64,000 bases of DNA, from assembly GCA_965197545.1 (NCBI GenBank), contig CBDANJ010000005.1, forward strand, positions 3,311 through 67,310, given 5' to 3'. Made by a program: the position numbers and the translations under genes. How positions within the stretch are numbered: the first letter of the stretch is position 1; the number at the start of each line of letters is the position of its first letter. This DNA is from Dehalococcoidia bacterium. Lineage in GTDB: Bacteria; Chloroflexota; Dehalococcoidia; Lucifugimonadales; UBA3495. Shown here piece by piece: positions 4,411 to 60,735 of this stretch. A model generated the notes under the pieces. That model had not been told where the DNA came from and ran no database searches. It saw only the letters and a list, made by a program, of their open reading frames with translations.

Positions 4411-5050
4411 ATGCAGCGTCAACGCGGCGAGCTGGTTCCGATCGGTGAAGTCATCGACGACCTGGACGGGCCGGCGATCCCCTCCGCTTCGCCCCAGGCC
4501 CGGCACCACTTCACCCAGGCTGATCAAGTGAACCTGCTTGTTTCAGCCCGCGAAACGGACCCCGATCTCGGCTTCATGGCGCGTCTGATGGCGCTGTGCT
4601 CGTTGCCCCGCACCAACCCCGGCAACCGGAGCAAGTATGTCCGACGCAACGGACCCTACACCTTGGTCATGAACGCGGGCGGTCTTCACAAGCTCCCCTT
4701 TGGCAACCTGCCGCGCCTTTTGCTGGCTTGGGTGTGCACCGAAGCGGTGCGGACCCAAAGCCGTGTTCTCGTTCTAGGGAAGTCGCTTTCCGAGTTCATG
4801 CGGGCGCTGGGCATGGAGCCAGTTGGCGGTGGTGCTACGGGCGCTCGAACCCGGCTCCGCAACCAAATGACACGGCTCTTTAACGCCAGTGTCCGGTTGG
4901 TCTACAAGGATAAGCAAGGGGAACAGTTCATTGCCTCACACATAGCCGACCGGGGTGAGTTTTGGTGGGACCCAAAGCGCCCCAACGAGCGGATGCTGTG
5001 GGACAGCAAGATCGAACTCGGCGAAAAGTTCTTCAACGAGATCATCCGCC
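4411..5050 (+). pseudogene. repA: RepA_C-type replication initiator, 3'-truncated at a MITE
   Basis: Collinear with the RepA genes at 33322 and 59101 (FMARLMALCSLPRTNPG, FGNLPRLLLAWVCTEAVRTQSR) up to ..FFNEIIRR. From there the ORF reads into the MITE at 5051. Confidence 0.8.
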
Positions 5051-5180
5051 GGTACTGTCAAGTTAACCGATTCGTTGTCTAATCAGCGCCTCGTCCACTC
5101 CCTAAGTTGTTGATTCTACATTCGACCGCCGACCGTTTCCGCCTCCAAAACCCGAGAATTCCACTTAACTTGACAGTGCC
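5051..5180. mobile_element. 130-bp MITE with IS6-like termini (copy A)
   Basis: Termini GGTACTGTCAAGTTAA ... TTAACTTGACAGTGCC. The reverse complement is about 95 percent identical to 40813..40942. Confidence 0.75.
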
Positions 5181-5734
5181 GCCATAAGCACTGGAACCAT
5201 TAGCAAGGTGGAGATGTCCCTATCCGAGTTCGGTCCATTCTCTCCAGAGGTCGAAGCGCCCTATTGGATATGCGGAGACAAGGGCAATAAATGTTCTAAT
5301 GGCGGTATTAAGTTTGAACCAGGGAAGTATGTTCTGACCGCTACACCCTATACGGATAGTGGCGAAGAGGGGCAGAAGAACACCCTTAGATTCTCAGTTT
5401 CGCAATGAGAGACGACTCAACATCGCTGATCCCGGAGGCCTGAGCGGGAGTTCTGCCTTTCCTGGTGAGTCGGGTATTGTAGTGGACCAGCACCATTGGG
5501 GTCACCTCACGAAACGGAAAAAATCGTACGCTCAGGCCGATTGAGCGGCGGTAGGGGTCGCAAGTTGCGCTGTTCGACTTGCTTGTTCTGCCGCCAGGTT
5601 GATGTGCTCCCAGCCCAGTGGCGTCAGCTCGGAGCCGCCTAATTCCTTGTCGTCGGTGGCATGAGGGGCGCGGGAATGGCCCACTCCGCATCCGGCAGGT
5701 CAAAGGTATGGGGAGGTTGTCGTTGGATACGATC

Positions 5735-6815: not shown

Positions 6816-7895
6816 CTAAGTTAGACCTGGGACCATTTGAAGTCCACTCCATGGTATAGAACTCTGGGCCTGGGACCTGGGTAATCTGGCCTCCGGCGCC
6901 GGCGGCCGATAGGCCAAGGCGCTGTGAGGCCGTCGCTGGTTGTACTCCCTGCGCCATCTCTCGGCCAACACCTTCGCCTCCCACAACGTGTCGAAGACTT
7001 CTACGTTCAGCAGTTCATCCCGCAGTTTTCCGTTGAAGCTCTCCACATATCCATTCTCCCAGGGGCTGCCGGGCTCGATGTATAAGGTCCTCACCCCAAC
7101 AGCCTTCAGCCAGTCCCGAACCGCCTGAGCCGTAAACTCCGACCCGTTATCGGACCGAATGTATTCAGGCACTCCCCGATCCACGAACAGCTCCGCCAAT
7201 CGATCCAACACGTCCTGGTGATTCATCTGTCGTTGAACCTCAATGGCCAGACACTCCCGGGTGTATTCATCCAGTAGGGTTAATAATCGAAAGGCCCTTC
7301 CGTCATGGGTTCGCTCATGCACGAAGTCATAGCTCCAGACGTGATCCTTGTGAGCCGCTCGTAACCGAACGCAGGATCCATCATGAAGCCACAGTCTCCT
7401 TCGTTTCGGCTGTCTGGACGGGACCTTCAACCCTTCTCGCCCCCACAACCTCTCCACCCGCTTGTGATTCACTTTCCACCCTTCCCAACGAAGCATGGCC
7501 GTGATCCGTCGGTAGCCGTATCGCCCGTAGTGCGTGGCCAACTCCACCATCTCAGCCACCAATCGAGCCTCATCATCGGGGATATGCCTTTCCCTTCGCT
7601 GGGTCGATCGAGCCTGTCCCAGCACTTGGCAAGCCCGACGTTCGGAGACGCGCTCTGCTCCCAATCTCTCCCTCACCCACACCACTGCGCGTCTCCTCTT
7701 CGTCGGGCCTAGAAGTTTCCCGAGGAAACTTCCTTTAGAATCTGCTTGTCCAAAGACAGATCTGCCACTAGCTTCTTCAACCGGGCATTCTCCTTCTCCA
7801 ACACCTTCAACCGCTTGGCCTGATTCAGTCGAAGCCCTCCGTACTCCTTGCGCCACCGGTAGTAGGTCTGCTCGGTCACCCCAATCTGTTTGCAC
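6816..7895 (-). CDS. IS3 OrfB (DDE integrase part; made as an OrfAB fusion)
   Basis: Shows rve-type motifs (HSDNGSEF-like [26 protein letters not shown]). Lies in the -1 frame relative to orfA. Confidence 0.85.
7644..7721 (-). promoter_or_regulatory. programmed -1 ribosomal frameshift signal of the IS3
   Basis: Slippery heptamer G_GGA_AAC in the orfA zero frame (rc of 7715-7721), 6 nt before the orfA stop. The 10-bp stem GGAGACGCGC/GCGCGTCTCC (7644-7653 / 7687-7696) lies 18 nt downstream. The -1 reading gives the OrfB sequence [11 protein letters not shown]. Confidence 0.7.
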
Positions 7896-7987
7896 ACCTG
7901 GCCCACCGTCTGTCCTTGGGCTAGACCCACCTCTGCCTCACGCAGCTTCATGATGATTTGTTCTGCCGTAAACCGCTTCCGTGCCAT
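7709..7987 (-). CDS. IS3 OrfA (HTH)
   Basis: [32 protein letters not shown] is a typical IS3 OrfA. Confidence 0.85.
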
Positions 7988-8054
7988 CCTTGCCTCCTTC
8001 CTAAAACCGAAAATCCTAACATTCAACTTGGACCCGTTTTAGGGGGCAAGGTCA

Positions 8055-8364
8055 CCAGCAACAGGCGGGAGAGATTCCCGAAGGGCAGTCCGGTTTGACC
8101 CACGGCCGTCATGATCAGGGTGTAGGGGCCGTTGACGCGCCTGTATTGAAGCTGACGGCCCGGGTTGGTGCGGGGCAGGGAACACAGCATCATCAACCGC
8201 GCCATGAACCCCGTGTAGGGAGTTGCTTCACTGGCTCTAACCAAAAGGTCCACCTGATCGAAACGGGTGAAGTGGTCAACGCCTGGGGAGAATAGTCTCG
8301 GAGCGCCTTCACGGGTTCCTCCCGGCCCGGGAAGATTCCCCCGTCGGTTCTGTAGCTTCTGGAC
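8055..8364 (-). pseudogene. repA: repA 5' fragment, cut by the IS3
   Basis: ..FTRFDQVDLLVRASEATPYTGFMARLMMLCSLPRTNPG..LPFGNLSRLLL is collinear with RepA residues about 30-125. Ends at the IS3 IR. Confidence 0.7.
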
Positions 8365-13719: not shown

Positions 13720-14940
13720 AGCTCAACCGGTCGATGCAACACAAGCGTTAAATCGTTCTGCCGGAGTTTCAAACTCCAGCGTCTGACGGGGCCGTTCGTT
13801 CAGCTGACGTGCCACCTTGTTCAGATGCGCCTGAGAGTGCATCGACAAGTCCGTTCCCTTGGGGAAGTACTGTCGGAGTAGACCGTTGGTGTTCTCATTC
13901 GAACCGCGCTGCCATGGACTCTGAGGATCGCAGAAGTATACATCAATGTCGGCCGCCAACGTGAACCGTCGATGCTCGGCAAGCTCCAGGCCTCGATCCC
14001 AAGTCAGAGATTTGTACAGCTCCGTCGGCAGCTTCTTCGCGTGCTTGATGAGCGCCGACACGACCGTCTCCGTTTTCTTGCTGGATACTTTCGTAAGCAT
14101 CACGTAGCGCGTATGACGTTCGACCAGAGTCGCAATGTGGCTGTTCTTCGATCCGGACAGCAGATCGCCTTCCCAATGACCGGGCACGGCACGATCTTCG
14201 ACCGAGGCCGGGCGCTCACGGATCGATACGATGCCGGTGATCTGTCCTCGTCCATGGCCTCTCAGACTTGCATGCCGGGATCGACGAATCGTCCGCTTTG
14301 ACCGTAGATGCTGCATCAGCTCTGCCTTCAGCGCACCACGGGCTTGAACAAACAGGCTGCGGTAGATGGTCTCGTGAGACACGTGATAGGACGGATCCTT
14401 CGGATAGGCTCGTTTCAGCCAGCTGGCGATCTGCTCAGGCGACCAGTTTATGCTGAGCTTTCTGGCCACTACCCGTCGTAGTGGTGGATGCTTGACCAGC
14501 TGACACCGCTTCGGACGGCGGGCCCTCTCCCAGGCTCGCTCATCGGCCTCCGCTGCTCGATAGTCATCATCGCCGCCATTCCGGCGAATCTCCCGGCTCA
14601 CCGTCGATGGTGAGCGACCCATCAACCCGGCGATGGATCGTATCGATTGATGTGCCGCAATGCCTCGAGAGATCTCTTCGCGCTCCGACAACGTCAGTGC
14701 CAAACATGAACGGCGTGGTGGCCGAGGACGGATGCCTCCGTACAAAGCAAGCTGACGGTAAACAGACGATGGCTGCTTACCAAACACTCGTCCAATCGAC
14801 TTTAGCGACTCCCCTCGTTTCCACCGGTCCCACACCTCCTCCAGTTCCGCCAGCGTGTAACCGCGACGAGCTCTTTGCTTCATCCGCATACACTCCACCT
14901 CCTCCTTTCAAGGCAAAGTGTTGCGTCGATGGGTTGAGAC
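13720..14940 (-). mobile_element. IS30-family insertion sequence
   Basis: Imperfect IRs: CTCAACCGGTCGATGCAACAC at 13722, matched by the rc of 14918-14938, CTCAACCCATCGACGCAACAC. Carries a single transposase. Confidence 0.8.
13723..14883 (-). CDS. IS30-family transposase
   Basis: HTH plus DDE region (GHWEGDLL, TLTWDRGLELA-like SLTWDRGLELAEH, RGSNENTNGLLRQYFPKG). Confidence 0.9.
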   Translation of the reverse strand: MKQRARRGYTLAELEEVWDRWKRGESLKSIGRVFGKQPSSVYRQLALYGGIRPRPPRRSCLALTLSEREEISRGIAAHQSIRSIAGLMGRSPSTVSREIRRNGGDDDYRAAEADERAWERARRPKRCQLVKHPPLRRVVARKLSINWSPEQIASWLKRAYPKDPSYHVSHETIYRSLFVQARGALKAELMQHLRSKRTIRRSRHASLRGHGRGQITGIVSIRERPASVEDRAVPGHWEGDLLSGSKNSHIATLVERHTRYVMLTKVSSKKTETVVSALIKHAKKLPTELYKSLTWDRGLELAEHRRFTLAADIDVYFCDPQSPWQRGSNENTNGLLRQYFPKGTDLSMHSQAHLNKVARQLNERPRQTLEFETPAERFNACVASTG

Positions 14941-15205
14941 CACCACACTTATCGTGCTGTAGATGGAAGCATCTGAGGGCTTCGGTTTTTCTGGTCTTTC
15001 CAGAGAGCGCGCCAACGCGTCCTCTGTGGTCTTGGTGGGGGGGCGCTATGCCAGTATCCTCGAAACTCATAAAGATTTACTCGGACATATCAATCTGCTC
15101 TGATAAATGCAGCGGTGTTAGGAATGAACCGGAAAACGGAGTAATCGGTCGAGGCTTCTACTGCCCATATGATCCAAACGGTGTCTCTTTGATGATGATC
15201 AGTAA

Positions 15206-15317
15206 GATCAAAATCGCCTGGCCGAAGCTGAACTACGCAACGGCCAAGGGGGTGCTGATCCTCTCGCCTTCGACACCGGCCATCGCGCCTCTCAATTCAG
15301 GCCAGCTAACAAGCTAA
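15206..15317 (+). pseudogene. repA: repA 3' fragment
   Basis: ..ISKIKIAWPKLNYATAKGVLILSPSTPAIAPLNSGQL* matches the RepA C-terminus. Followed by an oriV skeleton. Confidence 0.65.
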
Positions 15318-15413: not shown

Positions 15414-15542
15414 ATTTCCCACAGGCTTGTGTGAATCCCGGGAGTTTTCCAGGAATAAACAGGTACACACTCAAGTAGTAAGACAAGTAGTAAGACAAGT
15501 AGTTAAAGAACAAGTAGTAGGAACGACGACTGTTGTGAATAA
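15414..15542 (+). other. oriV skeleton copy 1 (only a single iteron-like unit)
   Basis: ATTTCCCACA box; GGAATAAAC unit; four CAAGTAGT 12-15-nt repeats at 15472/15484/15496/15511; GACGAC; DnaA-box-like TGTGAATAA (rc TTATTCACA) at 15534-15542. Confidence 0.6.
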
Positions 15543-15619
15543 ACCAAACAGAACCCCAAACGGACCCAAACCAACCCCAACCGGCGAGAGGCTCACCCCT
15601 TTTTGAGAGTAAACTGGCA

Positions 15620-16725
15620 TTGGTGCATGAATCGGCGTAAGCGGGCACGCTAGCATCGGCGGAGGGTTCCGGTCCATCATGGAGATCAAGGAGGCAACGT
15701 CATGGCCGCAGGGAAGTCGAGCCGAATCAACCGCCAGTACAAGACGAAGTACAGAATCCGGAACTGGAGGGAGTACGAGCGTGGCTTCAGGAACCGCGGG
15801 GATGTCACGATCTGGCTGAGCGAGGATGCGATTGCCGCGTGGATACTACCGAAGAACGGTCTCCGCGGAGGGCAGCGTCGATACTCGAACCTCGCGATCC
15901 GGACCGCGTTGACGCTGCGGGTCGTCTTCGGCCTACCGCTTCGCCAGACGGAGGGGTTCTGGACTCGCTGCTCAGCTTGATGAGCCGCAGCGTCAAGGCC
16001 CCGGGCCCACACCACCCTCTCGCGCCGGAACCCAATTGTTGTGGTGCCGCCCCTGACCCGAGCCCACGACGGCCCGATCGACCTGATCGTTGATTCCACA
16101 GGGCTCAAGATTCTGGGTTGCGGCGAATGGAACGCGCACAAGCACAAGACATCAAAGAAACGCCGGGATTGGCGGAAGCTGCACATCGGAGTGGATGCGG
16201 AGGGGTTCATTGTGGCGGCCGAACTCACAGCGAGCAGCCGGGACGACGCCTCCACACTCCCTGATCTTCTCGCCCCGCTCGAAGTTCCCATCCGGCGTTT
16301 CACGGCGGACGGGGCCTACGACCACAGATCGGTCTACGATCGGGCCATCGCGGCCGGTACAGAGAACGTCTTGATTTTGATCCCCCCTCGTCGCTCTGCG
16401 CGCTGTCGGCGGGGCCCACCGGCGGCCCCTGGGCGCAGCGTGAAGCGTCTCTTCAGAGGATTCGCAAGGTCGGGCGACGGGAGTGGCGGAAGGAGTCGGG
16501 CTACCGACAGCAGGCGCGCGTTGAGAACAGCTTCTTCCGATACAAGTCCGTGTTCGGAGGCGGCCTGAAGGCGAGGCACAGCAAGGCGCAACGCACAGAA
16601 GCCGCGATCGGGTGTCACATCCTCAACCGGATGGCCGAGCTCGGTAGGCCATCGTCGTACGCTCTTGGTAGGTGATGGACCTGTGAGTCGGGTTCGTTGC
16701 GGGCCAGTTCCGATTCATGCATCAA
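15620..16725 (+). mobile_element. IS5-family (IS903-like) element, decayed
   Basis: IR core TGCATGAATCGG at 15624-15635, with its reverse complement at 16710-16721. About 1.1 kb. Confidence 0.65.
15702..16675 (+). pseudogene. IS5-family DDE transposase with several frameshifts
   Basis: YKTKYRIRNWREYERGFRNRGDVTIWL and LRQTEGF are in frame 0. LDSLLSLMSRSVKAP is in +1. HTTLSRR..IDLIVDSTGLKILGCGEWNAHKH is back in frame 0. The C-terminal REWRKESGYRQQARVENSFFRYK is in a third frame. Confidence 0.7.
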
Positions 16726-19713: not shown

Positions 19714-19750
19714 TTATTCACAGGTTAGTCGCTCTTACTACCTTCTTGAT
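19714..19750 (-). other. oriV skeleton fragment (copy 2)
   Basis: TTATTCACAGGTTAGTCGCTCTTACTAC matches the DnaA-box end of the other origins, for example 41562. Confidence 0.45.
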
Positions 19751-27421: not shown

Positions 27422-28077
27422 CCGCCTATTATATCGCCTTACTCGAAGTCGTGGCAGAGTAGCTTGAGAGATGCCGTGAGGTGTCTTTGAGTGCCGTTCG
27501 TCGATCCTGAGGAATTCTCGGGCGGGTTATGGCCCCATGGTTACAGAGCGGCTGGAGCCTGATATCCCCGGAAGCGCTCACCCTGGAACTCCCCATGAAA
27601 TCCTGGAACGGCCAGGAGGTAATCTGCATCACCGAAATTCTGACCCCTAAGAGTCCAATGGGGTGCGGGTGCGGACCCCGGAGGATTGGAATGGAAGGAT
27701 CTACGGCTGGTCCTGGCTGAACCCATGGGCGGCCGCAGTGGGAATTGAGGAAGACGGCAGATCGGACCAACGATATCGGAATTTTACCGAAAGGGCGTTG
27801 ATTCCCCGGCCCACTGCGACCAGAAATAAACTTTACCCTGATTTCCCTGAAAATTGAAGTGTTTTCCGCAACAAATGTCTGCTCCACCGGGCGGGGCAGC
27901 TCAGGAGGGATTTCCTTTTGGGAGTGTGCTCTAGGACAGTGCGGCCAGGAGAGCCGTAGCGGCCGCTTGAGCGCAAAGGTCCGGCAGGTGGCCCAGAGAT
28001 AGAGATCGAGGTTCAACGAGGAGAGTTTGAGGGTTGAAGGCGCTCGACCGCGACTAAGCATCTGAGTATCGGGGTTG

Positions 28078-33321: not shown

Positions 33322-34296
33322 ATGGAGCGTAAACGAGATGGGTTGCTTCCTATCGGGGAAGTCTTCGGCAGCTTGGACGGGCCGGTGAAAACACTCCAGA
33401 AGTCGCCCCGGGCGCAGCGGGGCTTCACCCAAGCCGACCAAGTGAATCAGCTTGTTTCGGCCAGTGAAGCGGACCCGGATCTCGGCTTCATGGCGCGGTT
33501 GATGGCGCTGTGCAGCCTGCCTCGCACCAACCCCGGAGACCGACTTCAGTACAAGCGCGTCAACGGGCCGTATAAACTCATCATGTCGGCCACCGGGGAC
33601 CACAAGCTGCCCTTCGGCAACCTCCCACGCCTGTTACTCGCCTGGGTCTCGACCGAAGCGGTGCGGACCCAAAGCCGCGAACTCGTCCTGGGGAAGTCGC
33701 TTTCAGATTTCATGCGAACACTAGGAATAAACAGCACCAGTGGCGGGAAGAGGGGCGAGCAAACCCGGCTTCGTAATCAGATGCGGCGGCTTTTCAATGC
33801 TCATGTCCGGTTGGTCTACGAGCACGAGCACGGCGAAGCAAGCGTGAGTTCGTCTGTAGCCGACCGCACCGAGTTCTGGTGGAATCTCAAGCGTCCCGAC
33901 GAGCCGATGCTGTGGCAGAGCAAGATCCGCCTCGGCGAAGACTTCTTTAACGAGATCATCCGCCATACCGTCCCGATCGACATGAACACCCTCAAGGCGC
34001 TCAAACGGTCCCCGCTGGGCCTGGATCTCTACCTGTGGCTCACCTACCGCACCTTCGCCCTCCGCGCTGCACAGCGGCTCACTTGGCGTCAGGTGTACCG
34101 TCAGTTTGGAGCGGACCCGGCCAAAGCCAGCGATAAGCGCACCGTTCTAAACTTCCGTAGCAAGGTTCTACGGGAGTTCAAGAAGATCAAAGCGGCCTGG
34201 CCGGCTCTGAATTACGCGACGGCTCCAGGCGCGTTGATCCTCTTGCCCTCGACGCCAGTCATTGCACCATCGAATCATCGTCAGCTAGCAAATTAG
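33322..34296 (+). CDS. repA: RepA_C-type plasmid replication initiator
   Basis: GGGAGA RBS. FMARLMALCSLPRTNPG, FGNLPRLLLAWVSTEAVRTQSR, LRNQMRRLF, VPIDMNTLKALKRSPLGLDLYLWLTYR. Confidence 0.85.
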   Translation: MERKRDGLLPIGEVFGSLDGPVKTLQKSPRAQRGFTQADQVNQLVSASEADPDLGFMARLMALCSLPRTNPGDRLQYKRVNGPYKLIMSATGDHKLPFGNLPRLLLAWVSTEAVRTQSRELVLGKSLSDFMRTLGINSTSGGKRGEQTRLRNQMRRLFNAHVRLVYEHEHGEASVSSSVADRTEFWWNLKRPDEPMLWQSKIRLGEDFFNEIIRHTVPIDMNTLKALKRSPLGLDLYLWLTYRTFALRAAQRLTWRQVYRQFGADPAKASDKRTVLNFRSKVLREFKKIKAAWPALNYATAPGALILLPSTPVIAPSNHRQLAN

Positions 34297-34416: not shown

Positions 34417-34599
34417 TTTTCCACAGGAGCCTGTGATTCAGGGAAGTTTTCCACGCTGTTGCGGGATACCTTCCCCATCAATTCTTCGCTGTTGCGGGAT
34501 ACCTTCCCCATCAATTCTTCGCTGTTGCGGGATACCCATACAAGTAATAAGACAAGTAATAAAGAAACAAGTAGTAGGAACGACGACTACTGTGAATAA
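34417..34599 (+). other. iteron-type oriV (copy 3, complete)
   Basis: TTTTCCACA box at 34417; iterons; CAAGTAAT/CAAGTAGT AT-rich repeats; GACGAC; TGTGAATAA (rc TTATTCACA) at 34591-34599. Confidence 0.65.
34454..34537 (+). repeat. iterons: CGCTGTTGCGGGATACC x3 at 33-bp spacing
   Basis: Starts at 34454, 34487 and 34520. The first two units are identical over all 33 bp. Confidence 0.8.
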
Positions 34600-34684
34600 A
34601 TCAACCGAAAACAGAACCTGGAACAAGAGGATCCCAAGGGCGCCAGGTTGCCCTCTCTGTAAGACCCGCTAAGTGCCTTTATCA

Positions 34685-34759
34685 GGTACTGTCAAGCTAA
34701 GTAGAATTCTCTGGTTTTGGAGGCGGAAACAGTCGGCGGTCGAACGTAGGATCAACAAC
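34685..34759. mobile_element. partial MITE copy C (one terminus plus 75 bp)
   Basis: GGTACTGTCAAGCTAAGTAGAATTCTCTGGTTTTGGAGGCGGAAAC.. matches 40813-40887. Ends abruptly at the truncated IS110. Confidence 0.65.
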
Positions 34760-40770: not shown

Positions 40771-40812
40771 CCTTTTGCCGTCGGTCCCGGCGGGTGGCTG
40801 ACGCGTCCACCC

Positions 40813-40942
40813 GGTACTGTCAAGTTAAGTGGAATTCTCGGGTTTTGGAGGCGGAAACGGTCGGCGGCCGAATGTAGAATCAACAACTTAGGGAGTGGCC
40901 GAGCCGCTGATTAGACATCAAATCGGTTAACTTGACAGTACC
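40813..40942. mobile_element. 130-bp MITE with IS6-like termini (copy B)
   Basis: GGTACTGTCAAGTTAAG ... GGTTAACTTGACAGTACC. Has 16-bp terminal IRs. Confidence 0.75.
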
Positions 40943-41436: not shown

Positions 41437-41561
41437 GTATGGCGAGGTGGAATCAAGAATCGTTCCTTTGTGCAACCCTCTGGCGGTGCAGAGTGGCTCT
41501 CTGAGCTTGAGTTCCTGTCTCTTTGTGGTGGTTCTTTTCCCGGGGCTTTGTTTCTGGTGAT

Positions 41562-41711
41562 TTTTCCACAGGATTAGTCGCTCTTACTACTTGTACATCT
41601 TCTACTTGATCTTATTACTTGAGTGTCGTGGTGAATGTTCGAAGATTTCACCCCCGAATCGTGGTGAATGTTCGTGGAAAACTCTCCGGAATCACAGGAA
41701 GCTGTGGAAAG
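41562..41711 (-). other. iteron-type oriV (copy 4, inverted)
   Basis: TTTTCCACA at 41562; AGTAGTAAGAG-type repeats; iterons TCGTGGTGAATGTTCG at 41626 and 41659 (33-bp spacing); second box (rc CTTTCCACA) at 41703-41711. Confidence 0.6.
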
Positions 41712-41780
41712 CGCCCTCAGCTGCTCTGACGGAGGAATGGCGGGGGTCGAGGGATGCGGGATCAGCATTCCCTTGGCCGA
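41709..41780 (-). pseudogene. repA: repA 3' fragment
   Basis: SAKGMLIPHPSTPAIPPSEQLRAL matches the RepA C-terminus (compare TALGLLILHPSTPVIPPATDPLRF). Confidence 0.5.
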
Positions 41781-41808: not shown

Positions 41809-42597
41809 TCAAAACCGGAATCGGATGCCTGCCTCGATCTGGTCGGCATCGATCGGCGCCCCCCGGCTAGAGCGAAAGCGATAGCCAAAGTGGAACTCCA
41901 CGCGCGGGGAGACCCGAGTCGAGAGGCCCGCCATGATCTGATAGGCAAACCGGGAATCCTCGTATGCGACGGTGGTCCTGAGAGGTTCGGTGGGAAAGCC
42001 GATGGTGGGAAGCTCGATGTTGGGAAAGATGATGTTGGGAAGGCCGATGGTTCCGAGTTCGTTCTCAACGGTGACGGTGGAGGTGAAGGCCCCATCATGG
42101 AAGAAGGCTCCAAGACCGAACCCGGCATAGGGACTCACTCTCCATTTGGGATAGCGGTAGTAGACATTGCCCATGAGGGAATGGGTCTTGATCTCTCCGT
42201 CGCTTTCTATGGTGATAGAGGGAAAGGGAATTTCAAAGCCTTCAACAATCAACCCGCCGACGCGTCCCGCCCGGGCTTGCCCTCCGCTGGCCTGGGAAAG
42301 ATTGACGATGGGATTACCGATACCGACTTTCTGGTATCCCCATTCCATCTCCGTCGAGAAGCCCTCTTTGAAGGCGTAACCGAAGGCTGCTGTAAACCCG
42401 CCTCCAGCTTTAAAATTGTCCCCTGGACCGCCGAGGCCGGCCGCTTGGCCCTTCGGGTCGTATGGGAAAACGGCTGATCCAGCAAAACCGACAAAAAACT
42501 CACCGTCTTTGTCAGCATCCTGCGCATTCAGAGGGCTATACGAGGACAAGACGACGAATAGGGTGAATAGGGTGAAAAAATATCGAAGGAGGTTCAT
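41809..42597 (-). CDS. outer-membrane beta-barrel protein
   Basis: Signal peptide ..SYSPLNA/QD. Alternating beta-strand pattern. C-terminal ..EAGIRFRF. Confidence 0.75.
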   Translation of the reverse strand: MNLLRYFFTLFTLFVVLSSYSPLNAQDADKDGEFFVGFAGSAVFPYDPKGQAAGLGGPGDNFKAGGGFTAAFGYAFKEGFSTEMEWGYQKVGIGNPIVNLSQASGGQARAGRVGGLIVEGFEIPFPSITIESDGEIKTHSLMGNVYYRYPKWRVSPYAGFGLGAFFHDGAFTSTVTVENELGTIGLPNIIFPNIELPTIGFPTEPLRTTVAYEDSRFAYQIMAGLSTRVSPRVEFHFGYRFRSSRGAPIDADQIEAGIRFRF

Positions 42598-42608
42598 TCC
42601 CACAATCT

Positions 42609-42741
42609 TCAACTACTCAGCCTGGGAATGGAAGATTTGGAGGGCGAGAGGATCAGCACGCCCTTGGCCGTCGAGTAGTTGAGGCCCGCCCAGGCGATTT
42701 TGATCTTCTTGAGCTCCCGCGAACAATCTTTACGGAAGTTA
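42609..42741 (-). pseudogene. repA: repA 3' fragment abutting the IS6 IR
   Basis: NFRKDCSRELKKIKIAWAGLNYSTAKGVLILSPS.. begins exactly at the IS6 terminal repeat (42742). Confidence 0.6.
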
Positions 42742-49176: not shown

Positions 49177-49725
49177 CTAGAATCCCACCAAGATCCCGAC
49201 GCTGGGCTCGAGAACATTCAGGGTTTGCCCCTCGACGCCGCGTATGGAGTGCAGGCGGACATCGAAGCGAAGTCCGATGGGTTCGATTAATCCCACCTTC
49301 AATCCGCCCCCATAGTTGAAACTGAACTTCGTTCCGAAGCTAGCTGGCCCTTCACCTCCCGCACGAAAGACGCCAACCCCGGCCGTCGCGTAAGGCCGGA
49401 GTCTGGGGCCACCGGGCAATTCCACCCGCAGATTCGCACTGTAGAGAAAGGCATTGCCGTTGCTGTCAATGAAGTTCGGGCTGTACGCAACCGTGTGCTC
49501 CAATCCCAGTGGCGCCACAGAATGATACAGCCTCGCTCCGAAGACTCCGAAGTCCTTGGGGTCGACCCTCGCCTGCCCGGCAGCACTACTCACCCCGCCC
49601 ACTCCCGAACTCAGCGTGAGGGTGCCCGGATGCTGGAAGCCCCCAAAGACCGTAAAGTCCTGAGCATGGAGCGAACTTGCGAAACCCACCAACGCCACCG
49701 TCAGCAATTTTGGGAAGTATCTCAT
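49177..49725 (-). CDS. small outer-membrane beta-barrel protein
   Basis: Signal peptide ..FASSLHA/QD. 8-strand-like pattern. C-terminal ..GILVGF. Confidence 0.7.
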   Translation of the reverse strand: MRYFPKLLTVALVGFASSLHAQDFTVFGGFQHPGTLTLSSGVGGVSSAAGQARVDPKDFGVFGARLYHSVAPLGLEHTVAYSPNFIDSNGNAFLYSANLRVELPGGPRLRPYATAGVGVFRAGGEGPASFGTKFSFNYGGGLKVGLIEPIGLRFDVRLHSIRGVEGQTLNVLEPSVGILVGF

Positions 49726-49779: not shown

Positions 49780-49806
49780 TAGTAAGAGCGACTAACCTGT
49801 GGATAA
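49780..49806 (+). other. oriV skeleton fragment (copy 5)
   Basis: AGTAAGAGCGACTAACC-TGTGGATAA contains a perfect DnaA box (rc TTATCCACA) at 49798-49806. Confidence 0.45.
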
Positions 49807-59000: not shown

Positions 59001-59100
59001 TTGAATTTTCTTAGCTGGAGGTCGGTCGCACGGGAAGGGTCAGCTTCACCTACAAAAATGTCCATTGGCGTCTGGGTCCTGTGGGAGAATAGAAGCCCTG

Positions 59101-60078
59101 GTGTGCAAACGAGACGGCTTGATTCCCATTGCTGAAGTCTTCGGCAGACTGGATGGCCCGGTGAAGGCGATCCGCGAAGCCACGCCCCAGGCGCTCCACC
59201 ACTTCACCCAGGCCGATCAAGTGAACCTGCTTGTTTCGGCCAGCGAAGCGGACGCCGATCTCGGCTTCATGGCGCGGCTGATGGCGCTGTGCTCCCTGCC
59301 CCGCACCAACCCCGGCAACCAGATTCTTTACAAGCGGGTCAACGGCCCGTACAAGCTCATCATGATTTCAGGCGGCAACACCAAACTCCCCTATGGCAAT
59401 CTCCCACGATTACTGCTGGCCTGGGTATGCACGGAGGCGGTGCGGACCCAAAGCCGTGAGCTTGTCCTGGGGAAGTCGCTTTCCGAGTTCATGCGAACGC
59501 TCGGTATGGAGCCGGTCGGCGGGGGTGCGACGGGTGCTCGAACCCGCCTCCGCAACCAGATGCGGCGGCTCTTCAGCGCTCATGTCCGGTTGATCCACGT
59601 GCATGAGCATGGCGAGCAGTTTGTTTCCTCGGCCATCGCCGACCGAGGCGAGTTCTGGTGGAACGAACGCAAGCCCGATGAGCCGGTACTGTTTGACAGC
59701 AAAATTCGGCTGGGTGAAGACTTCTTCAACGAGATCATCCGCCACCCGGTGCCGATCGACATGAACACCCTCACAGCCCTCAAGCGTTGCACCCTGGGCC
59801 TGGACCTCTACCTGTGGCTGACCTACCGGACATTCAGCTTGAAGCGCCCGCTACGGCTCACGTGGAAGCAGTTGTACTGCAAGTTTGGAACGGACCCCGC
59901 CAAGTCGGACAACAAATTCATCGTTCGGAACTTCCGCCAAAATGTTCTACGGGAATTGAAGAAGATCAAGCTCGCCTGGCCGGAACTGAACTACTCGACG
60001 GCTCTGGGCCTTCTGATCCTGCATCCCTCGACCCCGGTCATCCCTCCGGCAACCGATCCGTTGCGCTTCGCTGAATAG
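59101..60078 (+). CDS. repA: RepA_C-type plasmid replication initiator
   Basis: Collinear with 33322..34296. The GTG at 59101 was chosen by alignment with MERKRDGLLPIGEVF (the track starts at TTG 59065). Confidence 0.85.
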   Translation: MCKRDGLIPIAEVFGRLDGPVKAIREATPQALHHFTQADQVNLLVSASEADADLGFMARLMALCSLPRTNPGNQILYKRVNGPYKLIMISGGNTKLPYGNLPRLLLAWVCTEAVRTQSRELVLGKSLSEFMRTLGMEPVGGGATGARTRLRNQMRRLFSAHVRLIHVHEHGEQFVSSAIADRGEFWWNERKPDEPVLFDSKIRLGEDFFNEIIRHPVPIDMNTLTALKRCTLGLDLYLWLTYRTFSLKRPLRLTWKQLYCKFGTDPAKSDNKFIVRNFRQNVLRELKKIKLAWPELNYSTALGLLILHPSTPVIPPATDPLRFAE

Positions 60079-60180: not shown

Positions 60181-60364
60181 ATTTCCACAGGGTTGTGCGA
60201 TTCCGGGGAGTTTTCCAGGAATAAAACCCTTCACTGAAAACCCCGGTCTTTGGAATAAAACCATTCACCCGCCCCCCGGTCTTTGGAATAAAACCCTTCA
60301 CCATACAAGTAGTAAGAACAAATAGTACAGAACAAGTAGTAGTAGCGACGACTACTGTGGATAA
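60181..60364 (+). other. iteron-type oriV (copy 6, complete)
   Basis: ATTTCCACA; iterons; CAAGTAGT-type AT-rich repeats; GACGAC; perfect DnaA box (rc TTATCCACA) at 60356-60364. Confidence 0.65.
60218..60305 (+). repeat. iterons: GGAATAAAACC(C/A)TTCAC x3 at 34/33-bp spacing
   Basis: Starts at 60218, 60252 and 60285. Confidence 0.75.
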
Positions 60365-60735
60365 ATCAATCGGATCAAAAAACCACAAGAGACGCCAGCG
60401 AGCCCTGAGAAACGGCCAAAATCCTTCCTTTTAGGAGTGGAAACCAAGGAATCGGTGGGACAGGGCTGTCCGAGAACGGCTTGCACAAACAAACGGTTCT
60501 GTAACCCCCTGGTCCACCCCCCGGCCCTTTTGCAGAGTCTATCAATAGATATATTTGTATTTATTTGTACCAGGGCTTCTTCGGAGTCCGGCAAAGCGGC
60601 TCGCCTGTCAAGTGGCGAAGGCCGTTGATCGAGACGCTGGAACCAGGGTTGCCGTTGCCCTTGCGCAGACACCATGGGATAGGATATTTTAATTAGAAGA
60701 GAGCAAGATGTGTTTTTGTTTCACATAAACTCTTG

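Follow-up and report, generated by a model that had tools for sequence, protein, structure and literature searches.

Replication modules of an undescribed RepA_C clade, with a predicted two-part RepA–iteron code, in several copies on one plasmid contig

The RepA_C (PF04796) family of plasmid initiators includes those of the IncN, IncW and PromA plasmids and of SGI1. In SGI1 and the IncN plasmids (pCU1, IncN2/N3), which share this Pfam family, the origin oriV lies just downstream of repA and comprises direct repeats flanked by or overlapping DnaA boxes, together with an AT-rich region; SGI1 RepA has been shown experimentally to bind the origin repeats, and both the repeats and the AT-rich region are required (PMC7826253). 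The 64-kb window analysed here (C5:3311–67310, where C5 is a contig of 69.7 kb and one of the 8 contigs in a bin assigned to Chloroflexota) contains six complete or fragmentary origins of this type, two of which follow intact repA genes. The module belongs to a kind of replicon already known, the RepA_C iteron origins, within which it forms a highly diverse and hitherto undescribed clade; the distinctive architecture of the clade consists of three iterons at 33–34 bp clamped between DnaA boxes and unwinding repeats. These are very probably theta-type, iteron-controlled origins with modular specificity, of which two modules look functional while the others are relics. The intact initiator genes and the six origin regions are as follows.

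33322–34296, plus strand: repA-34, intact initiator gene, 324 aa; match to RepA_C (PF04796) with E=1.9e-30
34417–34599, plus strand: oriV-34; DnaA-box cluster 34417–34453, AT-rich repeats 34540–34580, DnaA box 34591–34599
59065–60078, plus strand: repA-60, intact initiator gene, open reading frame of 337 aa; match to PF04796 with E=1.9e-29
60181–60364, plus strand: oriV-60; DnaA-box cluster 60181–60217, AT-rich repeats 60305–60345, DnaA box 60356–60364
41562–41711, minus strand: oriV-41, orphan origin without repA; left DnaA cluster 41711–41675, AT-rich repeats 41623–41583, DnaA box 41570–41562
15414–15542, plus strand: oriV-15, collapsed to a single iteron; four AT-rich repeats, DnaA box 15534–15542
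19714–19750, minus strand: origin right-end fragment; tail of the last AT-rich repeat, GCGAC, DnaA box TTATTCACA; conserved downstream stretch to ~19682
49780–49806, plus strand: origin right-end fragment beginning TAGTAAGAGCGAC..; DnaA box TTATCCACA

Aligned together with a seventh copy from another contig of the bin (C3), the six regions share one skeleton, as a preliminary description of this DNA had proposed, and its coordinates and quoted iterons agree with both the reading and the alignment. The skeleton runs from a DnaA-box cluster (consensus [T/A/C]TTTCCACAG-N-CTGTGATTC-N-G.AGTTTTCCA) through the iterons and the CAAGTAGT-type AT-rich repeats to a terminal DnaA box on the opposite strand. 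The CAAGTAGT-type repeats, three or four per origin and 12–15 nt long, are followed by (A/G)GCGAC, contain 68–73% A+T (41% window-wide) and are purine-rich on one strand. The DnaA consensus TTWTNCACA is matched exactly seven times in the 64 kb (1.5 expected), each time within one of the six regions, and a count of seven was reached in 0 of 100 shuffles of the sequence.

The iteron of oriV-34, CGCTGTTGCGGGATACC, occurs exactly at 34454, 34487 and 34520 (spacing 33/33; 0.2 matches expected), and its two inter-iteron spacers are identical, thus indicating a recent duplication of the whole unit. The iterons of oriV-60, GGAATAAAACCNTTCAC (also written GGAATAAAACC(C/A)TTCAC), start at 60218, 60252 and 60285 (spacing 34/33), while oriV-41 contains only two copies of CGAACATTCACCACGA, at 41674–41659 and 41641–41626 on the minus strand (spacing 33), so that the periodicity of 33–34 bp given previously is confirmed by measurement. 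Of the three origins that had been regarded as complete, oriV-34 and oriV-60 are so, but oriV-41 has two iterons and merely the 3′ tip of a repA upstream, and reads GCGACTAATCC in place of the GACGAC that had been assigned to each of them. The region 15414–15542 is collapsed, consistent with its earlier listing as a partial skeleton, but it is not iteron-free, as it keeps GGAATAAACAGGTACAC at 15452–15468. The iterons do not differ completely, as had been supposed: placed in register, they share the frame C1 G2 N3-5 W6-8 C9 N10-12 N13-17, i.e. CG-NNN-WWW-C-NNN-NNNNN, and oriV-60 and oriV-15 have a common 5′ half, GGAATAAA, with unlike 3′ halves.

Both intact RepAs score far above the PF04796 cut-off of 26 bits (106.9 and 103.6 bits) and are 74% identical to each other, and the intact origins, situated ~100–120 bp 3′ of their respective repA genes, possess the tandem direct repeats, DnaA boxes (7/7 in origin regions) and AT-rich region of a RepA_C replicon. 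The start of repA-60 is probably GTG 59101 rather than TTG 59065, to judge from homology with repA-34 and a GGGAGAA ribosome-binding site. Megablast of 12 kb against PLSDB gave no match and therefore no close annotated relative, and all RepA matches in PLSDB are below 60% identity, the best being that of Pelobacter propionicus pPRO2 (NC_008608; 43%), followed by PromA-type plasmids (37%) and IncN-typed plasmids (~28–29%); identity to the IncN-typed and other sampled ~34-kb enterobacterial plasmids is only 27–29%. The window RepAs thus lack the close RepA and iteron similarity to a prototype that would place them in the IncN, IncW or PromA groups, and both iterons and period differ: SGI1 and IncN origins contain eight iterons at 22 bp or four 16-bp repeats, whereas the present clade has three at 33–34 bp. 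In an IncN-typed plasmid a DnaA box is joined to eight CGTACATCCGACCCCC repeats starting with CG at 22 bp, followed by CCTGTAG repeats. Among the papers found, none reports a comparable diversity of iteron classes for SGI1 or IncN. pPRO2, known from annotation only, contains three CGCTGAAACGGTGGCGC iterons at 33 bp with an identical frame (CG-NNN-AAAC), three CCTGTAGT-type AT-rich repeats and a terminal DnaA box, but it comes from another phylum and a deeper branch and is without the left DnaA-box cluster seen in the window. Granulicella pACIX904 has four GATGAAACGGTCGCGC repeats. As the layout recurs in pPRO2, pACIX904 and the IncN-typed plasmid, it is older than the clade.

A one-genome-per-species scan gave 202 matches, the best 80 of which (60–74% identity) were analysed, and a metagenome scan contributed a further 80 loci, making 160 related loci overall. 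The best 80 genome relatives are almost all metagenome-assembled genomes (MAGs) of Acidobacteriota (Bryobacterales, Terriglobia and Vicinamibacterales), and the 160 loci come mostly from Acidobacteriota MAGs and soil metagenomes. The layout of the origin is conserved across these loci, with the first iteron abutting ..GTTTTCCA and the last abutting the AT-rich repeats; of the 80 genome loci, 48 have three iterons at 33–35 bp, 11 have two and 1 has four. When an iteron class is defined as ≤2 mismatches of 17, 61 replicons fall into 46 classes. In a metagenome sister clade (L088–L141; 50–60% identity), mostly from peat and soil, the 5′ half CGCTGAAAC is nearly invariant and only the 3′ half varies, the repeat spacing being detected at 31–32 bp.

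For 49 non-redundant pairs, each variable column of RepA was compared with each position of the iteron by mutual information (residue numbers follow repA-34). The top pairs lie in only two places, residues 272/273/276/277/280/281 with iteron positions 10–17 and residues 136–142 and 147 with positions 3–8, and their z scores are 8–16 against a 95th percentile of 2–3.7 across RepA columns. At the C-terminal site, K281 occurs with (A/G)GG and D281 with (A/G)CC; R273 and D276 occur with xxGAC, F/Y273 and R276 with xTCAC, and N273 and N276 with TACAC/AACAT; and D277, N277 and A277 occur with C13, A13 and T13, respectively. At the N-terminal site, M136 and D(D/R)S.S are found with GTG, I/V136 and SDSG with CTG/CAT, NSG with GTC, and STS(E/Q) and Y/H147 with ACT-ATT. 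The helix signature of repA-34 is K272 R273 L276 N277 S280 K281, and that of repA-60 is K F R N Q N.

The correlation of RepA DNA-binding variation with iteron sequence, which had been put forward as a check, is therefore positive in these 49 members, and it is also positive in two further comparisons. Among 24 phylogenetically independent nearest-neighbour pairs, differences in the 3′ half follow differences in the helix signature (rho 0.88, p=1e-8) and differences in the 5′ half follow those in the loop signature (rho 0.65, p=6e-4); neither cross term (0.09 and 0.19) is significant, and backbone identity is uncorrelated. In 29 held-out metagenome replicons, the nearest helix signature predicts the eight positions of the 3′ half with 2.9 mismatches, against 4.9 for the backbone-nearest relative and 5.1 at random (p=3e-4 and 3e-5); where at least 5/6 signature residues match (n=11) the error falls to 1.0, against 3.9 and 4.7, and several predictions are exact at a backbone identity of only ~60%. 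For the 5′ half the error is 1.24, against 2.03 and 2.46. The two halves assort independently: L014, L030 and L032 all have ACTATTC with unlike 3′ halves. L070 and L075, sister taxa (100/100) on one 87-kb contig, have 90% backbone identity and agree fully in WH1 loop and 5′ half (WH1 and WH2 being the first and second winged helix), but their helices read SDNVTVQNFRKK and EDKRTVDAFRTD and their 3′ halves differ at 8/8 positions; L030/L032 is a second such same-contig pair (support 98/94). The covariation, the independent pairs and the hold-out prediction together constitute strong computational evidence for the predicted specific recognition of the iterons by RepA. The earlier proposal that initiator–iteron specificity has diversified within one replicon family is supported, as the intact RepAs belong to one family and each origin has its own iteron.

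The PDB contains no match to RepA at the sequence level, and the RepAs are not members of Rep_3 (PF01051) by sequence, the Pfam scan having matched RepA_C only. An AlphaFold2 model built from 48 sequences (predicted local distance difference test, pLDDT, 71; predicted template modelling score 0.67) consists of two winged-helix units. The first comprises helix 124–133, the variable loop 134–145, helix 146–158 with the invariant TRLRNQM.RLF, and a beta hairpin, and the second comprises helices 255–262 and 266–270, the long helix 272–292 and the hairpin 297–308. Given this layout, the co-varying WH2 residues form the i, i+1, i+4, i+5, i+8, i+9 face of the second recognition helix, while those of WH1 are the turn and the first residue of the first recognition helix. 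A Foldseek search of PDB structures retrieved RctB domains 2–3 (E=4.5e-6; template modelling (TM) scores 0.51/0.57) and RepE54–iteron complexes (probability 0.95–1.0; TM scores ~0.4/0.57). The tandem winged helix of the Rep_3/RepE-pi-pPS10 initiators is thus present in a model of moderate confidence.

The iterons of WH1-WH2 initiators are usually ~22 bp apart. RepE of F, pPS10 RepA, R6K pi and RctB domains 2–3 have the tandem winged helix predicted here, and one monomer per iteron with each domain reading one half would likewise be a common feature, although RepA-34 and RepA-60 have no detectable sequence similarity to these proteins. In pPS10, WH2 reads the 3′ half and dominates specificity (bioRxiv 10.1101/2024.09.03.610885).

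On the proposed mechanism, host DnaA would bind the left box cluster and the one right box, and three RepA monomers would occupy three 17–19-bp iterons 33–34 bp apart, the first abutting the last left DnaA box and the third the AT-rich region. The N-terminal winged helix (loop 134–145 and the start of helix 146–158) would read iteron positions 3–8 and the C-terminal recognition helix (272–281) positions 10–17, upon which the adjacent three to four 12–15-nt CAAGTAGT repeats would melt and serve for helicase loading. If one face of the helix were altered together with one half of the iteron, the result would be a new replicon unrecognised by the old RepA. Arrays may evolve in concert by gain and loss of whole 33–34-bp units, and collapse to one unit (cf. 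oriV-15) followed by re-expansion could spread a changed iteron through the array. Arrays of 1, 2, 3 and 4 copies are seen, and in 12/50 of them, including oriV-34, the two spacers are ≥93% identical, the others grading down to random similarity. On C5, modules 34 and 60 look functional, and the rest would be relics cut by insertion sequences (ISs) or miniature inverted-repeat transposable elements (MITEs) or collapsed to two iterons or one, stemming from sibling replicons that arose when a module was duplicated in the plasmid lineage or when closely related plasmids fused. We lean, if only slightly, towards the wider picture in which a two-module code (WH2 face with positions 10–17, WH1 loop and helix start with positions 3–8) permits orthogonal replicons to arise through duplication on the same plasmid, a source of redundancy, followed by recoding and by collapse with re-expansion, multi-replicon plasmids being incubators and graveyards of incompatibility specificities.

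Decayed repA copies were identified in a fragment inventory by tblastn and blastn with the intact modules as queries, and are listed below with an adjoining MITE.

41727–41765, minus strand: repA 3′ tip directly upstream of oriV-41, from blastn against repA-60; translation ..SAKGMLIPHPSTPAIPP
42624–42740, minus strand: repA 3′ remnant, ~aa 277 to stop; translation ..NFRKDCSRELKKIK..
15189–15314, plus strand: repA 3′ remnant, aa ~283–324, upstream of oriV-15; remainder lost beside an IS30-like transposase gene (13723–14898)
4411–5050, plus strand: 5′ two-thirds of repA, aa 1 to ~213, cut at 5051 by a 131-bp MITE; sister to repA-60 in the tree
5051–5181: MITE of 131 bp with IS6-type ends and terminal repeats GGTACTGTCAAGTTAA..
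8047–8347, minus strand: repA fragment, aa ~16–109, between an IS3-family element and a truncated VirB11-like gene
27930–28037, minus strand: repA fragment, aa ~227–263, from the tblastn/blastn searches
C5:829–972: repA 5′ end, outside the window and just beyond its edge

A genome search for the initiator gave four places, and the contig-wide tally is two intact and at least eight decayed copies of one replication module. The six regions recorded previously thus stand, but that inventory had missed four repA fragments in the window, one outside it, and a complete fourth replicon on the 3.9-kb contig C3, whose iteron CGGTGAAACACCTCACAT occurs three times at 34/33 bp. Residues N277, K280 and D281 of the remnant at 42624–42740 match the code for the ACC-A.. 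3′ half of the oriV-41 iteron, from which it is separated by an OMP_b-brl outer-membrane beta-barrel gene (41809–42612, minus strand); the helix signature expected for ACC-ACGAC of oriV-41 is present in no RepA of the bin. This gene is wedged between two different repA 3′ ends, and a second OMP_b-brl gene (49177–49725, minus strand) likewise directly abuts an origin remnant. Further MITE copies are located at 40812–40942 and C5:68368–68497, and a half copy (34685–34759) lies 86 bp past oriV-34, beside an IS110 transposase gene; a search for the ancestral repA across the MITE copies found no complementary fragment beside another MITE. The fragments 19714–19750 (minus strand) and 49780–49806 (plus strand) start at one and the same nucleotide (TAGTAAGAGCGACTAAC..), which lies within the last AT-rich repeat, and the sequences to the left of it are unrelated; the unwinding region could have broken repeatedly at this point, or both fragments could go back to one old truncation.

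The sequence 3′ of the terminal DnaA box contains a conserved A/C-rich stretch (..AAAACAAAA..ACCACA(A/G)G.G..) and then a short GC hairpin, e.g. GAGGGCTGCGCCCTC on C3. These sites occupy 34600–34680, 60365–60440, 15543–15620 and 41480–41561 (minus strand) and are present in many related loci; a terminator, a priming signal and a small RNA are among the possible roles. Rfam has no match in the window, hence no known RNA regulator at the origins.

Coexistence of several replicons per molecule, or of related replicons per cell, has precedents in the IncF FIA/FIB/FII mosaics, the rhizobial repABC plasmids and the Pseudomonas syringae PFP plasmids (PMC5304414), in all of which it involves diverged specificity determinants and module exchange, as here. 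Unlike the present case of a two-part protein–DNA code within one family, these systems use other initiator families or antisense-RNA and partition determinants. The window agrees with the earlier statement that several versions have accumulated on one molecule insofar as several lie on one contig, which is also true of eleven other contigs with two or three copies in independent assemblies, and their relationship can be refined to that of close siblings. In 14/14 same-contig pairs the iterons differ at ≥4/17 positions, and at ≥3/8 in the 3′ half.

The alternative that fares best attributes the copies to cointegration, mediated by ISs or MITEs, through which modules were captured from other, unrelated plasmids of the family, instead of to duplication and divergence within the lineage. 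Cointegrate formation is a known property of IS6-type elements. The plasmid is densely populated by IS6, IS3, IS30, IS110, Tn3 and MITE elements, at which several fragments end, its backbone modules (a family-X gene and its site) are present two to three times at 68–92% identity, and C3 carries a distant member of the family, its RepA lying elsewhere in the tree. The tree, however, does not scatter the window copies: repA-34, repA-60 and the 4411 fragment cluster in one clade with a single outsider, L013 (supports 93/79, 99/87 and 97/77), so in-lineage duplication or fusion of sibling plasmids is more likely than distant capture. Co-located pairs elsewhere are also sister taxa (L070/L075 and L030/L032), and oriV-60 and oriV-15 share their iteron 5′ half. 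Capture is accordingly possible but rather doubtful.

In F, P1 and R6K, incompatibility and copy control are exerted by additional iterons that lie outside the origin. On this precedent oriV-41 and oriV-15 might be kept as incompatibility decoys, titrating or handcuffing the RepA of incoming plasmids of the same specificity, and both relics do retain clean iterons and DnaA boxes. Their surroundings, on the other hand, display ordinary decay, with truncated repA genes, IS insertions and the iteron-free fragments at 19714 and 49780, and iteron loss is common in chromosomal copies, the array being retained in 8/22 cases on contigs ≥500 kb against 52/57 on smaller ones (p=1.6e-6); a decoy function is thus improbable. 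Array loss on large contigs parallels the decay seen in the window. Chromosomal repA copies, such as L003, L010, L016, L033, L037, L040, L079 and others on multi-megabase acidobacterial chromosomes, are usually without an array, which suggests integrated plasmids with inactivated origins.

The joining of separate plasmids into one contig by the assembler was also considered. The contig is not circularised, ending in an inverted, 100% identical copy (C5:68779–69677) of the IS3-family element at 7156–8054, and the bin is demonstrably mixed. Against this artefact, the only repeats of ≥200 bp and ≥90% identity on C5 are the IS3 copy and 822-bp family-X paralogs (2048–2864/12122–12941); as none falls in 15–64 kb, there is nothing that could have mis-joined the stretch that holds oriV-15, -19, -34, -41, -49 and -60, and the repA copies themselves are only ~75% identical in DNA. 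Multi-copy contigs, moreover, recur in the eleven independent cases mentioned above, which makes this explanation very unlikely. That the 33-bp repeats are a partition centromere, the sites of a transcriptional regulator or the target of some other factor is hardly credible, for although ParA-like genes are on the plasmid (28344–28937 and 57199–57858) and binding of the repeats by the initiator is a prediction, the repeats co-vary with two RepA segments that are the recognition elements of both winged helices, RepA residues predict the repeat sequence out of sample, and the RepA_C protein of SGI1 binds equivalent repeats (PMC7826253).

Several points weigh against the interpretation of these modules as modular, iteron-controlled RepA_C origins. 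RepA binding, firing and incompatibility in the clade are deduced from sequence, as are the use of DnaA, the melting site and replication activity. The AlphaFold2 model is of moderate confidence, with loop 139–143 below a pLDDT of 50. Mutual information is partly confounded by shared ancestry, a point which the independent-pair and hold-out comparisons address. An iteron-like operator was not found 5′ of repA-34 or repA-60, only one weak 7-mer being present, and the usual autoregulation is therefore not evident. Since C5 ends inside the IS3 copy, the plasmid is not closed. Different contigs of one bin also carry replicons that are near-identical and have the same iterons (L025/L026, L077/L078, L045/L049, L051/L054 and L053/L055), which reflects either strain-mixed bins or a coexistence contradicting simple incompatibility.

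The plasmid also encodes type IV secretion system fragments, a coupling protein and a MobA-type relaxase, and its mobile elements comprise IS3, IS30, IS6, IS110 and IS481-like elements, TnpB, Tn3 with a resolvase, a tyrosine recombinase and MITEs. The bin's chromosome was considered as its host and is probably not: 0/40 of the bin's relatives, six of them congeneric, have a RepA of this kind, the sole TonB-dependent receptor of the 4.7-Mb bin is on C5 (43714–46641), and no Omp85/BamA is found in the bin, though C5 encodes outer-membrane beta-barrel proteins. The Chloroflexota assignment of the bin fits a cell without an outer membrane, so C5 and C3 are probably mis-binned, and a co-occurring member of the Acidobacteriota is their most likely source. 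L013 and L018, binned with Nitrospirales and Pseudomonadales, may be mis-binned likewise. As bins are mixed, a figure of 10–20 replicons per MAG is a count per bin, not per cell.

A change of specificity in iteron plasmids is a long-standing problem, as the protein and several sites have to change together without loss of replication, and the outcome of such a change in initiator and origin is a new incompatibility group. In the present family, one conserved scaffold carries dozens of natural specificities, with a code that already predicts unseen members, and its same-molecule sister replicons differing in one module resemble intermediates caught in the act. Few genetic tools are available for Acidobacteriota. 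In soil members of this phylum, the clade seems to constitute a major plasmid replicon not described before, and its origins could seed vectors and mutually compatible replicon sets; if true, the code would be usable for the design of orthogonal origins.

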